A stretch of DNA of 64,000 nt from Thermoanaerobaculia bacterium (GCA_035544895.1 DASZZM010000026.1:35914-99913), one strand, 5' to 3'. Counted from the first letter of the stretch, positions 2,537 through 10,003 are shown. Numbers and translations: made by a program. The notes: generated from the letters alone by a model not told the origin.

Positions 2537-3046
2537 GTGTCACGGAAACGCGAAGGCCAGCACCCCTTCTTCATGAGGGCCTCGCACGGGTATGGCGAAA
2601 GGGCGGTCATGAACCAGCATGAGAAGAAACAGGTGTGCTTGACCGGGAAGCAGGATCAAATGCGGCGAGAGCTGGAGTCGCTGCTGCTGGAGCTGCCCCG
2701 GGCCGCCTGCCGGTCGCGGGATGTCGCGGCGGTTCTCGAATTCATCCACGCTCATGCGTTCGATTCAGGTCTTAACGTCGGCACGGTCAAGCAAGGTTGC
2801 CGGATCAAGGACAACAACATCTCCACACGGTTCCGGATCGCCGTGGGCCTCGGGATCCGCGAATACATCGAGGTATTGCGTCTCTCTTTCGCCTCGCGGC
2901 TCCTCCGAGGCAAACGCTTCGAGGTCTACCTGATAGCCATGGCGGTGGGATATGAGCATCAGGAGACCTTCTGCCGCGCCTTCCGCCGCCATTTTGGCTG
3001 CCCTCCTTCCAGCCTCATTGAAAGCAGAAGAAGCGTCAAGAGCTGA
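2537..3046 (+). CDS. AraC-family transcriptional regulator (small, HTH domain only).
   Basis: The C-terminal ~100 aa shows the two-HTH AraC signature: ...GLNVGTVKQGCRIKDNNISTRFRIAVGLGIREYIEVLRLSFASRLL...YLIAMAVGYEHQETFCRAFRRHFGCPPSSL. Local GC is lower than the surrounding DNA. Confidence 0.7.
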   Translation: MSRKREGQHPFFMRASHGYGERAVMNQHEKKQVCLTGKQDQMRRELESLLLELPRAACRSRDVAAVLEFIHAHAFDSGLNVGTVKQGCRIKDNNISTRFRIAVGLGIREYIEVLRLSFASRLLRGKRFEVYLIAMAVGYEHQETFCRAFRRHFGCPPSSLIESRRSVKS

Positions 3047-3154
3047 CGTCAAGAAGCTTGCTCAAGGTTTTCGGTCAAGGTGGTGCGTCAAGAGCAGGTA
3101 TCAAGAGGCTTGATCAAGCTCCCGCGCGGTACCTGTTCTTAAGATACTCGTGTC

Positions 3155-5599
3155 ATGCGGGTCCTCGTCGAATCGCTGCAAGCCGACCTGCGCTACGCGC
3201 TCCATCTCTTTCGCAAGGCGCCGCTCTCCACGGCCGCGATCGTTCTGGTGCTGGCCTTCGGCCTGGGGCTCCACCTCGCTGTCTTGGCCTTCTACAGGAC
3301 GTTTTTCCTAGCTCCGATTCCGGGCGTCCAGGCACCTGACCGCCTGGCCATCGTCGCCGGGCGTGGCTCTCTCGGCGGCGGCTGGCTGCCAATCTCCTAC
3401 CTCGACTATCGCAGCTTGGCCGCCGCCAGCAGGACGCTCTCGCCGATCGCGGCCTACCGCGACATCAGCGTAGCCCTCCCGGTGAACGAGGCTCCCCGCT
3501 ACGTGCTGGGAGAGATCGTCAGCCCAGGATTCTTCGAGCTTCTCGGCGCCCACGCCCGCCTCGGCCGTACCCTACAGCCAGGGGATGACGAGTCCGGAGA
3601 TCCGCAGGTCGTCGTCCTGAGCTCATACCTCTGGCAGACCAGCTTCGGCGGCGATCCGCACGCCGTCGGCAGGAAGATCCTGATCAATCAGGCACCCTTC
3701 ACGATCGTGGGCGTGATGGACCGGGAGTTTGTCAGCGTCGAAGGGCTGAGCGCCCCACGTCTGTGGGTACCGCTCGCCGCTTACCGCACCGCGTTCCCCG
3801 AGCCGGAGCAATTTCTCAAGCGCGAGAGCCGCACCCTTCTGCTGGTGGGCCGGCTCCGGCAGGGCGCCACCTTCAGCCAGGCAAGGCTGGAGCTCGACGT
3901 GATCGCAAGGCGCCTGGAGCAGGACAGCCCCGCGCAAGGCAAGCGCGAGCTGGAGCTGTCGCCGCTCGCCGCGAGGATCGCGGCGGATCGCCAGGTGTCG
4001 CTGCGGCATTCCACGGTCCTCCTCCTTTTGTTGTCGACCACGTTTCTGCTGGTCGCCTGCAGCAATCTGGCGAACCTTCTTCTGGCGAGGGGGTTGACCC
4101 GGCACCAGGAGATCAGGACCCGTTACCAGCTGGGGGCCTCCCAAGGTCGCCTCGTGCGCCAGTTCTTGACCGAAAGCCTGGTGCTGTCTCTGATCGGTGG
4201 GCTCTTGGCACCCATCGGCGCCTGGGGTTTGTTGAAGCTCCTGATCGCCCTCAAGCCGCCGGTCCTTCCCGGCCTGGCGCAGGAGTCCTTCCTCGGTCCC
4301 GGCGTCTATCTCTTCGAGCTGGCCGCGGCGCTTGCCATCGGCCTCGTCGCCGGTGCGGCACCGGCGCTCCAGGTATGGAGGGGGGGCTTCCTGGTCCAGC
4401 GCGAGAGCGCCGGGCCGGGAGCGAGCGTTTCTCGCGGCGCGATTCTTCAGGGCCGATGCTCCATCGCTTTTCAAGCGCTTCTGTGCACCGTCTCGCTCGC
4501 ATGCGCCGGCTTCTTTGTGAGCAGTCTCTTGCGCCTCGCCGAGATCGATCCCGGATTCGCCCGGAAGGGCCTCCTGGTGACCTCTCTCGACCTTAAGTCG
4601 CCCGGCTACAGTGAGAGCGAAGGGCGCCAGCTGCAGCAGCAGCTGCTGCTGACCCTTGGAAGTACGGCAACCATTCGCGCGGCCGCGCTGGCAGGCGGCC
4701 GGCCGCTGGGCGGTTTCAACATATGGCGAGACGTCTCCTTGGTGCGTTCCGCCCAGCATACGGAGACCACCCTTGTCGCATCCCAGGTCGTGAGCTCGGA
4801 CTACTTCCGGTGCCTGGGAATCCCGCTCCTCCGCGGCCGCGGATTCGATACCAGAGACCAGGCCGGAGCCCCACCCGCCGTGATCGTCAACGAGGCGGCG
4901 GTGCAACGCTTCTGGCCGCGGCGCGACCCGCTTGGACAGCGACTCTACCTGGATGACGAAGGGGTGCCGGTGGAGGTGGTGGGCGTCGCCCGCGATGCTC
5001 AATACATTCGCCTTGGCGAAGCTGCGATCCCGGTGCTGTACCTTGCCTCCTCGCAACGCTATCTCAGCCGGTCCTACCTGCATGTGCGCTTCACCCAGGG
5101 CGAGCGCGACGCGGTCGCGGCGGTGAGCGCCGCGCTCAGGCGGCTGAGCCGTGTGCGTCCAGGAGAGATCCAGACGATCTCTCAGGTCATCGAGCGCTCT
5201 CTCTGGCTGCCCAGATTGGAGGCTGTTCTGCTCTCCGTCATCTCTCTGTTCGGGCTGGCGCTGGCAATCACCGGGATGGCGGGCGTCACGGCCCTTTTCG
5301 GCCAGCAAAGGCGGCGGGACCTCGGTATCCGGGCTGCGCTTGGGGCGACGCCCGGCGGACTTTTCGGCAGTGCCGTGGGCCGCGAAGTCCTGGCCGCAGG
5401 CGGCGGTGCCACGGCGGGGGTCGCCGCGGCCTGGCTGATCCATCTCCGGGTCGCCAACCTCCTCTTCGAGTCGCAGAGTCAAGGACTGCAGGTCGCGTGG
5501 TGGGCGGCAGCCCTGACCCTGTCGGCGGCGTTCCTGGCGAGCGGCATTCCGGCGGCCCGCTGGTGCCGCCAGCAGCCGGCCCTCTGGCTGCGCTTCTGA
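3155..5599 (+). CDS. ADOP-family FtsX-like ABC transporter permease (MacB-type, two FtsX domains).
   Basis: 814 aa. N-terminus MRVLVESLQADLRYALHLFRKAPLSTAAIVLVLAFGLG. Two hydrophobic FtsX four-TM blocks are separated by large periplasmic domains. No ATPase gene is adjacent. Confidence 0.85.
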   Translation: MRVLVESLQADLRYALHLFRKAPLSTAAIVLVLAFGLGLHLAVLAFYRTFFLAPIPGVQAPDRLAIVAGRGSLGGGWLPISYLDYRSLAAASRTLSPIAAYRDISVALPVNEAPRYVLGEIVSPGFFELLGAHARLGRTLQPGDDESGDPQVVVLSSYLWQTSFGGDPHAVGRKILINQAPFTIVGVMDREFVSVEGLSAPRLWVPLAAYRTAFPEPEQFLKRESRTLLLVGRLRQGATFSQARLELDVIARRLEQDSPAQGKRELELSPLAARIAADRQVSLRHSTVLLLLLSTTFLLVACSNLANLLLARGLTRHQEIRTRYQLGASQGRLVRQFLTESLVLSLIGGLLAPIGAWGLLKLLIALKPPVLPGLAQESFLGPGVYLFELAAALAIGLVAGAAPALQVWRGGFLVQRESAGPGASVSRGAILQGRCSIAFQALLCTVSLACAGFFVSSLLRLAEIDPGFARKGLLVTSLDLKSPGYSESEGRQLQQQLLLTLGSTATIRAAALAGGRPLGGFNIWRDVSLVRSAQHTETTLVASQVVSSDYFRCLGIPLLRGRGFDTRDQAGAPPAVIVNEAAVQRFWPRRDPLGQRLYLDDEGVPVEVVGVARDAQYIRLGEAAIPVLYLASSQRYLSRSYLHVRFTQGERDAVAAVSAALRRLSRVRPGEIQTISQVIERSLWLPRLEAVLLSVISLFGLALAITGMAGVTALFGQQRRRDLGIRAALGATPGGLFGSAVGREVLAAGGGATAGVAAAWLIHLRVANLLFESQSQGLQVAWWAAALTLSAAFLASGIPAARWCRQQPALWLRF

Positions 5600-9064: not shown

Positions 9065-9079
9065 GCCAAGGAGAACAAA

Positions 9080-10003
9080 ATGCGCAAGTCACTTCAGCTC
9101 ATCGTCCCGTTCGCCCTGCTGACCAGCCTGCCGCTCCAAGGCCAGAAGCCGGACCTCCCGCGTCTGGAGGGCCACTGGGAGGGGGTGGCCGTGTCGGTCC
9201 CCGGCGAGATGGAGGCTGACGTCGAGATCGATATCGCCCGCACCGGCGAGAAGCTCCAAGGGCGCTTCGATTTTACGACCCAAGGGAAGACCTACGAGAT
9301 CCAGGACCTGCTGCTGCGCGACCATGCCGTCTCCTTCGCGGTGGTGGACGAGCAGAAGGTCACCGACTTTTTCAACGGCACCATCTCCCCGGACAGTTCC
9401 GAGATCACGGGCAAGATGACAGAGAACCTGCAGAGCTTCCCCTTCACCCTGCACCGCCGGGAGCCGACGCCGGACCGGGCGGACTTCCTCCCCCCGGTGC
9501 TGCGAGTCGCCGACGATGGCGCGGAGCTCCGCCAGGCCTTCAACGGCGACCAGGGGCACGTACGCCTCCTGATGACACTTTCGCCGACCTCTCCCTACAG
9601 CAAAATGCTCCTGCGTATCGTCCAGAGATACGTTTTGGATCCGATCGCAAGCTCGGACCTCAGGGTCTACGTCGTCTGGGAGCCGGTCGCCCGCGCTGAC
9701 TCAGAGCAAATATCCTACGCAGCCTCGCATCTCGTTTCCGACCCCCGCCTCCGCCAGTTCTGGTCCGCGTCCCGCTTCACCGGTCATGCCTTTGCACACC
9801 TTGCCGGCCATGACGGCAAACCCCTCGCGAATTCCTTTCTGGTCTTCGACCGCGACAAGAAGTGGACCGACCAGCCGCCAACTCCGGATCACACCCGCCT
9901 CCCGCTCCAAAACGGCGTGAACCCGCCCGCCGACCAGCGACTGAACGGCGCGAAGCTCGCAGACGACCTCAACGCCCGCCTGCTCCCCAAGCCCGGCCGC
10001 TGA
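9080..10003 (+). CDS. Secreted hypothetical protein.
   Basis: RBS AAGGAG. Signal peptide MRKSLQLIVPFALLTSLPLQGQ. 307 aa with no family recognised. Confidence 0.6.
   Translation: MRKSLQLIVPFALLTSLPLQGQKPDLPRLEGHWEGVAVSVPGEMEADVEIDIARTGEKLQGRFDFTTQGKTYEIQDLLLRDHAVSFAVVDEQKVTDFFNGTISPDSSEITGKMTENLQSFPFTLHRREPTPDRADFLPPVLRVADDGAELRQAFNGDQGHVRLLMTLSPTSPYSKMLLRIVQRYVLDPIASSDLRVYVVWEPVARADSEQISYAASHLVSDPRLRQFWSASRFTGHAFAHLAGHDGKPLANSFLVFDRDKKWTDQPPTPDHTRLPLQNGVNPPADQRLNGAKLADDLNARLLPKPGR

Follow-up and report, generated by a model that had tools for sequence, protein, structure and literature searches.

A candidate RiPP-like cassette in a Thermoanaerobaculia genome combines a Cys-rich precursor, a fused recognition element and site-2-type protease, and an AAA+-like/TPR partner

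The window considered here is a 64,000-nucleotide stretch of a Thermoanaerobaculia (Acidobacteriota) metagenome-assembled genome, and the locus of interest lies between its positions 2537 and 10003. As the initial annotation had described, six co-oriented open reading frames (ORFs), all on the + strand, are present there. At the center of the locus are a gene for a 35-residue Cys-rich peptide, a gene for a 413-residue membrane protease that begins with a putative recognition element for peptides that are synthesized ribosomally and modified post-translationally (RiPPs), and a gene for a 664-residue tetratricopeptide repeat (TPR) protein; an AraC-family regulator and a permease are encoded upstream and a secreted protein downstream. 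The locus had been put forward as an undescribed RiPP-like system. The analysis agrees: a precursor whose leader is conserved and whose core varies recurs beside a fusion that joins a RiPP recognition element (RRE) to a site-2 protease (S2P) in 68 of 79 related loci, and we found no published description of such a system. On balance, we think it probable that the locus is a member of a large, unnamed RiPP-like cassette family made up of a precursor, an RRE-S2P fusion, and an escort protein with a dead AAA+ domain and TPRs.

The precursor ORF occupies exactly positions 5653–5760 (+) and encodes MKRFYAREVETLKTTAAFYGCDPTNCCNYQCCTDG, which contains five Cys residues; the gene is also predicted by an independent gene caller. 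A Shine-Dalgarno sequence, GGAGG (5640–5644, +), can be read 8 nt before its ATG, so that both the Cys-rich peptide and the strong ribosome-binding site claimed for it are found. The leader, MKRFYAREVETLKTTAAFY, spans 5653–5709 (+) and, given as a free peptide, is KRFYAREVETLKTTAAFY. The core, GCDPTNCCNYQCCTDG, which carries the five Cys residues, spans 5710–5760 (+) together with the stop codon, the boundary between leader and core being placed where conservation ends. Computed monoisotopic masses of the reduced peptides are 1695.509 Da for GCDPTNCCNYQCCTDG and 2005.641 Da for FYGCDPTNCCNYQCCTDG. The window precursor is hydrophilic, with a mean hydropathy of −0.51 and a maximum of 0.04 over any 15 residues. 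It matches no precursor model in Pfam or NCBIfam, and peptides of this family are named "hypothetical protein" at NCBI. Between the precursor and protease genes, a GC-rich hairpin of 17 bp (5775–5813, +) stands out: the 81-nt segment 5755–5835 that includes it has a minimum free energy of −50.5 kcal/mol (z = −5.0 against 200 shuffles). This hairpin probably serves as an attenuator or as a site of processing and would thereby set the ratio of precursor to enzyme.

A scan of one genome per species returned 196 genomes with a relative of the fusion protein, and 79 of the corresponding loci were fetched: approximately 47 from Acidobacteriota, 16 from Cyanobacteria, 6 from Chloroflexota, 5 from Actinomycetota, 2 from Myxococcota, 2 from Gammaproteobacteria, 1 from Bacillota, and 1 unclassified. 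The TPR protein, with its N-terminal domain and its repeats, is encoded directly downstream of the protease in about 75 of the 79, and the only loci that lack its gene are three actinobacterial ones and those truncated by the end of a contig. All-against-all clustering of ORFs from the 79 loci and the window recovered the fusion in every one of the 80 loci and the TPR gene in 76 of them; it revealed no further universal neighbor and no conserved tailoring enzyme. This clustering was polluted by antisense shadow ORFs, with clusters 2–4 mixing real and shadow genes, and it was used only for the lack of any further conserved gene. The invariant core of the cassette is the precursor, the RRE-S2P fusion, and the AAA+-like/TPR partner.

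A tblastn search with the 35-residue peptide finds a match just upstream of the fusion in most of the 79 loci. The matches share the leader consensus M-K-K-F-x-I-R-E-V-E-T-L-K-T-T-A-A-x-Y, which is followed by a hypervariable tail of 6–35 residues. A regular expression for this leader picks out, besides the window peptide, 88 ORFs in the 68 loci, all of them upstream of the protease and on its strand in 1.15 Mb of related sequence, compared with a single match in the reversed-sequence control; most of the 11 loci without a match are contigs that end close to the gene. The 88:1 ratio of this control and the constancy of strand and position rule out a chance ORF. The ten fixed codons of the motif occur in 74 nucleotide versions, with a mean entropy of 1.52 bits at the third codon position compared with 0.36 and 0.15 bits at the first and second, a contrast that is partly circular in that the instances were picked by their amino acid pattern. 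The precursor ORF thus appears to be conserved at the level of protein across seven phyla. Two expectations of the initial annotation, that short Cys-rich ORFs would recur beside homologues of the fusion and that the peptide would be kept in relatives, are borne out by these results, the recurring ORFs being mostly, although not always, Cys-rich.

Beyond their first five residues, the tails consist of 21.6% Cys and are rich in Gly, Pro, and Trp. Among 66 unique tails, 36 contain exactly three Cys residues, 14 contain one, and 2 contain none. Several core types can be told apart: YGCDxxCC..., found in relatives of the window peptide; YDCGCPxxxPC followed by a hydrophobic tail; YGG(D/T/S)(P)CC(P/G)C(P/T)A; Y(V/S)CW(I/L)C(S/N)(S/N)CW, from Nostoc and other cyanobacteria; and YECRxCFP(D/E)W(F/L)C, common to Thermoanaerobaculia and Gammaproteobacteria. 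The last type was observed in four thermoanaerobaculial loci (L055, L057, L059, and L064), in a member of Lysobacteraceae (L073), and in Tahibacter harae (L074). That Acidobacteriota and Gammaproteobacteria share this core suggests that the cassette as a whole has been transferred horizontally. Genomes of Nostoc carry two to five near-identical precursor genes in tandem, an arrangement that suggests high-dosage production of a single peptide. In seven such loci (L026, L032, L034, L035, L037, L043, and L044), the tandem genes have a period of ∼235 bp and all end in VCWIC(S/N)(S/N)CW; they lie at about 6600–7760 of each locus, or at 2420–3210 in the case of L044. Candidate Nostoc products would be VCWICSSCW, with a computed mass of 1085.413 Da, and YVCWICSSCW, with one of 1248.477 Da.

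The composition of the cores raises the possibility that the same machinery makes a metal-binding peptide (a metallophore, or a small thiolate that binds Cu, Zn, As, or Hg) and not a disulfide-bonded antimicrobial. Cores with 22% Cys in CxC, CC, and CxxC spacings, most commonly with three Cys residues, would suit trigonal thiolate sites, and Gly, Pro, and Trp are enriched. The identical tandem gene copies suggest a need for bulk production, and the thioredoxin-like accessory protein of the window, described below, looks redox-dead. However, ORF clustering shows no metal transporter, metal-sensing regulator, or chaperone conserved nearby, and some cores have one Cys or none. We consider a dedicated metal ligand an unlikely product.

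The protease gene (5832–7073, +) is annotated at NCBI as hypothetical, and sequence comparison alone gives it little identity. The window protein scores 21.3 bits against the Pfam M50 family (PF02163), below the gathering threshold of 27.2 bits, whereas all 25 fusion members tested match this model at E ≤ 1 (best 3e-7) and many homologues have precomputed PF02163 matches. NCBIfam returns RseP and YydH/LiaK, each at E ∼0.03. Against the PqqD model (PF05402), the window copy has no match at E ≤ 0.1 and 6 of 25 homologues do match, with a best E value of 0.012. A profile of residues 1–91 finds TbiB1 as its best match in the PDB, weakly (E 0.43), and a profile of the full-length protein finds no PDB match, so the domains were resolved by fold comparison only.

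An AlphaFold2 model of the fusion, built with 87 homologues, has a predicted local distance difference test (pLDDT) score of 85.9. In this model, residues 8–86 fold into four strands and three helices that are followed by a short C-terminal strand, residues 90–104 are a disordered linker, and the membrane part is helical, with the HExxH motif in a helix of residues 162–190, a β-hairpin at residues 196–211, and Asp234 in a helix of residues 224–249. A Foldseek search of the PDB with the model places leader-binding domains of RiPP systems highest, with TbiB1 first (probability 1.0), followed by McbB, TigE, TfuB1, CteB, MccB, ThcOx, and TruD; MjS2P is tenth. His180, Glu181, His184, and Asp234 are invariant in the 87 sequences. 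The N-terminus of the protein (residues 1–90; 5832–6101, +) is therefore modeled as an RRE of the PqqD-like winged-helix type, a β-sheet followed by a three-helix bundle, and the membrane core (residues ∼115–413; 6174–7073, +) is predicted to have the S2P fold of an M50-like protease, with HExxH at 6369–6383 (+) and the distal Asp at 6531–6533 (+). Both halves of the proposed fusion of an RRE to an S2P-like HExxH protease are in this way confirmed by fold. We have found no description of an RRE fused to an intramembrane metalloprotease.

The family to which this protein belongs is large. When 1.84 billion cluster representatives (50% identity) were searched with a profile, 648 matched at E ≤ 1e-30, 1120 at E ≤ 1e-10, and 2233 at E ≤ 0.001, and among the matches listed most are full length, with 400–430 residues. 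Two distant relatives among them are longer and carry additional enzymes in the same chain: P0412 combines a radical S-adenosylmethionine (radical-SAM)/SPASM enzyme with the RRE and the S2P, and P0365 combines ThiF with the same two domains. Upstream of P0412 (L081, 5664–8565) lie two small ORFs, MMKDIGIRWLEKIDTTASGIMVTAAVYMLPS and MKEIRFRWLEKIDTTASSPPIMAVLIAPVPP. P0365 (L082, 338–9609) is surrounded by genes for a second ThiF protein, Yip1, an Rce1-like protease, a membrane-fusion protein, two MacB-type permeases, and a B12-radical-SAM enzyme, and its neighborhood includes the small ORF MELKARKLENIEVAQV... A further relative, P0385 (L084, 317–2886), follows a ThiF gene and has an upstream ORF, ...IQAKKVEQTKTTDARQNL; P0363 likewise has an upstream ORF, ...VRARKPEAVQLTAAAYGDPACTL. 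The small ORFs beside these four relatives keep the leader motif but have different cores, which beside P0412, P0365, and P0385 are without cysteine. The leader and the RRE-S2P fusion thus travel together with different partners, which is the behavior expected of a portable RiPP leader peptidase module, and the reading of the window locus as RiPP-like is strengthened by the fact that relatives fused to radical-SAM/SPASM or ThiF enzymes keep the same leader motif.

Relatives of the fusion without a TPR partner were also seen in Actinomycetota. One locus, from Micromonospora tulbaghiae (L078, 5773–14607), has a precursor-like ORF, MKKLVVRKLETVKTSAAAACASVN, and a fusion gene but no TPR gene, and is surrounded by genes for a phosphopantetheinyl transferase (PPTase), an AMP-dependent ligase, a PIG-L deacetylase, a methyltransferase, and an MmyB-like regulator; this cluster may be a hybrid of the lipopeptide type. 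The other two are L071 and L077.

Given that S2P enzymes classically cleave membrane-anchored regulators, and that the window precursor is hydrophilic (−0.51), one could ask whether the small ORF is incidental and the fusion is an ordinary protease of regulated intramembrane proteolysis (RIP) acting on a membrane protein. The distribution of the leader argues otherwise: ORFs with the leader motif are kept beside the protease across seven phyla, even beside the relatives with other fused enzymes. In addition, the protease carries a domain known for binding RiPP leaders, and no anti-sigma/sigma pair is conserved nearby as judged by ORF clustering. We regard an ordinary RIP protease as very improbable.

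The gene for the TPR protein (7070–9064, +) overlaps the stop codon of the fusion with its ATG (ATGA), an overlap that is consistent with the translational coupling that had been claimed for it. In an AlphaFold2 model of residues 1–395 (pLDDT 90.5), residues 1–210 form an α/β domain that is followed by helical repeats. The initial annotation had left this N-terminal region unassigned; it is now predicted to be a degenerate AAA+ domain with an ORC/Cdc6-like (ASCE α/β) fold (residues 1–210; 7070–7699, +), joined to extra TPR-like helices (residues 211–394) and then to a canonical TPR array (residues ∼395–650; extension and array together, 7700–9064, +). The Walker A motif (GxxxxGK[ST]) is found in none of 70 family members. 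In its place is a strictly conserved loop, GGPWAGV(R/H)D, which has neither the Lys nor the Ser/Thr, and a second segment, RNYPADRA, is conserved just as strictly. The missing Walker A motif indicates a pseudo-ATPase with a STAND-like layout. His84 is invariant and Cys51, Cys152, and His129 nearly so; Cys51 closes strand 1 immediately ahead of the dead P-loop, and Cys152 lies at the end of the Walker-B-like strand. These four residues might together create a metal site at the position that a nucleotide would otherwise occupy.

It had been suggested that the N-terminal domain of the TPR protein may carry a new activity. In its strongest form, this would make the AAA+-like/TPR protein the tailoring enzyme of the cassette, installing a novel Cys modification (a crosslink or an alkylation, for example) by means of a remodeled nucleotide pocket, and the cassette would then be a chemically new RiPP class. 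The protein sits where radical-SAM or ThiF enzymes sit in related clusters, is universal and coupled translationally to the protease, and retains the strict GGPWAG and RNYPADRA motifs and the (nearly) invariant Cys51, Cys152, His84, and His129 in a domain without ATP-binding residues; the dominance of three-Cys cores would also fit. What speaks against such an enzyme is that the fold search with the N-terminal domain returned AAA+ and TPR scaffolds only, with no catalytic fold, that Walker A is missing from all 70 members and no cofactor-binding signature is seen, and that TPR proteins in RiPP clusters are usually viewed as interaction scaffolds (PMC12715798). The suggested activity is therefore not supported, and a tailoring role for this protein seems to us about as improbable as a dedicated metal ligand.

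The partner could also be read as a receptor. The cassette would then be a peptide signaling device, in which the protease processes a small pro-peptide, as Eep does with pheromones of streptococci and enterococci, and the mature peptide is sensed by the TPR protein (compare Rap, NprR, and PlcR). The cassette does pair a small peptide with an M50 protease and a cytoplasmic TPR protein, the STAND-like architecture is typical of ligand-sensing switches, and the active site of an S2P faces the cytoplasm, so that its product may stay inside the cell. Pfam, NCBIfam, and the model, however, show no DNA-binding helix-turn-helix (HTH), phosphatase, or other output domain in the TPR protein, and because its P-loop is dead there would be no nucleotide switch. 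Similarity to Rap and NprR is generic TPR similarity, no importer is conserved, and hypervariable cores, identical tandem copies, and relatives fused to radical-SAM or ThiF enzymes point to product biosynthesis. An RRNPP-type receptor was ruled out on the missing HTH and phosphatase domains and the AAA+-like N-terminal domain, and a signaling device in the wider sense is, in our judgment, doubtful, more so than a tailoring role.

Comparison with characterized systems helps to place the cassette. By analogy, the one that appears to work most like it is TMcin of Staphylococcus aureus, which consists of the precursor TmcA, the S2P-clan (DUF3267) leader peptidase TmcP, the escort TmcE, the DsbA-like TmcD, and the ABC exporter TmcBC (preprint PMC13252029). 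Both have an S2P-clan intramembrane zinc protease for leader removal, a partner predicted to be non-catalytic and to control proteolysis, a thioredoxin-fold protein that would handle the cysteines, and a dedicated exporter, and both lack a classical tailoring enzyme. The TMcin partner, however, is a membrane protein of two helices, whereas the partner here is a soluble AAA+-like/TPR protein; the cassette protease is M50-like with about seven helices and an N-terminal RRE; the exporter is of the MacB/ADOP type; and the leader and core families are unrelated. Only 1 of 25 fusion members matches DUF3267 (E 0.067). Because the cassette precursor lacks a transmembrane helix and the protease does not belong to DUF3267, membership in the TMcin family was ruled out.

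Lasso peptide systems share the logic of an RRE-directed leader peptidase (TbiB1 or TfuB1 with B2, or the fused McjB) but employ a soluble transglutaminase-type cysteine protease and an ATP-dependent cyclase, whereas the cassette has an intramembrane metalloprotease and no cyclase. In a 2023 review, M50 proteases are documented in RiPP biosynthesis only for epipeptides (EpeP/YydH) and pearlins (TglG and TmoG); EpeP is thought to both cleave and export, and a fused RRE is not mentioned for the epipeptide and pearlin proteases (PMC10885120). Epipeptide (YydFGHIJ/EpeXEPAB) and pearlin systems resemble the cassette in having a membrane M50 protease that processes a ribosomal peptide, and many homologues of the fusion bear the yydH label "putative peptide zinc metalloprotease protein" in IMG. 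Nevertheless, the cassette has no radical-SAM epimerase, PEARL, or MNIO enzyme. With 14.2 bits against the YydH/LiaK model (NF058609; cutoff 225 bits), and with no radical-SAM gene in the locus or conserved in relatives, membership in the YydH/LiaK (EpeP) family was ruled out.

The CLI_3235/CcpM system, SCIFF peptides and other ranthipeptides, and sactipeptides are similar to the cassette in their short precursors with a conserved leader and Cys-rich core and in their RRE-bearing maturases, two of which (CteB and TigE) are among the structural matches described above. These systems need a radical-SAM enzyme, however, and there is none in the clade of the window. Two of 42 precursors match TIGR04065 weakly (best E 0.0026), and a rescan of the ten most Cys-rich precursors gave no match. 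Because the window peptide does not match this model and has no radical-SAM gene beside it, CLI_3235/CcpM was kept as a lead only. Finally, the RIP site-2 proteases RseP, SpoIVFB, and MjS2P have the same fold of the catalytic core and the same HExxH...D zinc site, but the fusion has an RRE in place of PDZ or CBS domains, and its putative substrate is a soluble peptide of 24–50 residues, not a membrane-anchored regulator.

Three further genes of the locus are clade-specific accessories outside the conserved core. The AraC-family regulator has an ORF open from a GTG at 2537; its likely start is the ATG at 2573, which a gene caller run on an independent assembly also chose (157 residues), and it ends at 3046 (+). 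The AraC assignment comes from Pfam (HTH_18, E 2e-15), and a homologue lies upstream in only five related loci. The permease (3155–5599, +) contains the MacB_PCD plus FtsX unit twice and, in line with the initial annotation, is taken to be of the ADOP type, a duplicated MacB/FtsX permease. It scores 618.0 bits against TIGR03434 (cutoff 622.3), covering positions 2–801 of 803, and although it falls 4 bits below the curated line it can in practice be taken by sequence as an ADOP member. In approximately 25 loci, all from Acidobacteriota, an ADOP gene flanks the cassette, lying upstream of the precursor in one arrangement and downstream of the TPR gene in the other; it is absent from other phyla. 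No ATPase partner of the permease was identified; it is a probable exporter or immunity pump.

The last gene (9080–10003, +) encodes a protein of 307 residues. It had been called a secreted protein, and its signal-peptide-like N-terminus agrees with that call; what can be added is its placement in a small thioredoxin-like family. The gene is present in 12 of the 79 loci, all from Acidobacteriota. The family has 50 matches, none of which contains a Pfam domain, and an SPTCxxC motif is present in 15 of 28 aligned members. Searched against the PDB, the family profile matches a protein disulfide oxidoreductase best (1a8l, E 0.041), followed by a glutaredoxin-like protein (1j08, E 0.11), and both alignments cover the site of this motif. 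The evidence is weak but coherent and suggests a periplasmic thioredoxin-fold protein, which would fit an exported Cys-rich product. At this site, the window copy and the members closest to it carry SPTSxxS instead, and the window protein looks redox-dead.

The locus has a lower GC content than its surroundings, 65.6% compared with 70.9% for the window, which places it in the lowest 3.5% of 7.5-kb windows; the GC content is ∼65–66% over the first 12 kb and 73–76% at 24–48 kb. The drop in GC that had been reported is real, but the accessory island drawn from it is unproven, as it rests on GC and no sign of mobility is seen. No radical-SAM, LanB/C, or YcaO gene is present within the 64-kb window, in agreement with the initial annotation, and a Pfam scan of ten flanking ORFs (298–2307 and 10135–17755) found an M20 peptidase and no hidden tailoring enzyme. 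Most of the large ORFs beside the locus have no Pfam match. One of them, with 879 codons (11890–14529, −), shows an M20/M25/M40 peptidase domain that is confined to the C-terminal half (residues ∼456–868), leaving the N-terminal 450 residues without assignment, and the GC content of this region reaches 74–76%. Antisense ORFs of 713 codons (3623–5764, −) and 691 codons (6917–8992, −) lie opposite the ADOP and TPR genes, respectively; they are shadow ORFs typical of high-GC DNA. A search for defense systems with PADLOC found no relevant match in the locus, and a defense function was dropped.

From sequence, predicted structure, and synteny, we infer the following course of events. The precursor would be made in excess, through its strong ribosome-binding site and through a stable hairpin after its stop codon that would limit read-through into the enzyme genes. 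The cytoplasmic RRE would bind the F-x-I-R-E-V-E-T-L portion of the leader as an added β-strand, as suggested by analogy with the leader complexes of TbiB1 and TfuB1 and by the co-inheritance of leader and RRE, and would thereby keep the peptide tethered at the HExxH/Asp site, close to the cytoplasmic side of the membrane. RseP prefers small residues. The S2P may cut near the small-residue junction T-T-A-A-x-Y, the point at which conservation ends, and so free a 16-residue core with five cysteines. By analogy with TmcE of TMcin and with the general role of TPR scaffolds, the AAA+-like/TPR protein could serve as a non-catalytic escort or gate that holds the reduced core or controls access to the protease. 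In the Acidobacteriota clade, in which the co-occurrence with the cassette is observed, ADOP may export the peptide or protect against it, the secreted thioredoxin-like protein may meet the peptide in the periplasm, and AraC may regulate the operon. The end product would be a small peptide, disulfide-bonded or metal-binding.

Several observations weigh against this RiPP-like cassette as we have drawn it. The score of the window protease lies under the gathering threshold of Pfam M50, and by sequence its RRE does not match PqqD significantly. A conserved leader and a variable core beside leader-recognizing proteins are what generally defines a RiPP cluster, and the cassette has them; with no tailoring enzyme, however, the product could strictly be an unmodified peptide. 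Three Cys residues are the commonest number, and an odd number fits simple intramolecular disulfides poorly, which argues against a purely disulfide product; some cores have one Cys or none. The thioredoxin-like protein of the window lacks its cysteines. The products of S2P enzymes are normally released into the cytoplasm, and the cassettes of phyla other than Acidobacteriota have no conserved exporter. Lastly, the strict GGPWAG and RNYPADRA motifs hint at a specific function that an escort does not explain. A bolder possibility, which we put forward tentatively, is that the RRE-S2P and the ATP-blind AAA+/TPR protein jointly install an as yet unseen modification on typically three Cys residues or assemble a new kind of metal-binding peptide. 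If so, the leader and RRE-S2P would be a portable module that is combined with radical-SAM, ThiF, or TPR partners.

Overall, the cassette probably represents a new route to ribosomal peptide products. Pfam and NCBIfam hold no model for the precursor, the fusion, the N-terminal domain of the partner, or the accessory protein, and no name or description of the cassette was found in the searchable literature, a body from which most subscription journals are excluded and which yielded analogues only (PMC10885120 and PMC13252029). Discovery of RiPPs leans on known tailoring enzymes, and clusters without them stay invisible. The leader motif, which tracks the RRE-S2P fusion across clusters with differing partners, offers a simple handle for genome mining in a family that is large and includes culturable Nostoc, Tolypothrix, Corallococcus, Tahibacter, and Micromonospora. 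The predicted products are short (∼8–30 residues), Cys-rich, and diverse and should be amenable to heterologous expression and mass spectrometry. Beside a new precursor family and a new protease architecture, the conserved pseudo-ATPase/TPR partner would be a new obligatory component, and the cassette as a whole may serve as a soluble-substrate model for how site-2 proteases recruit their substrates.

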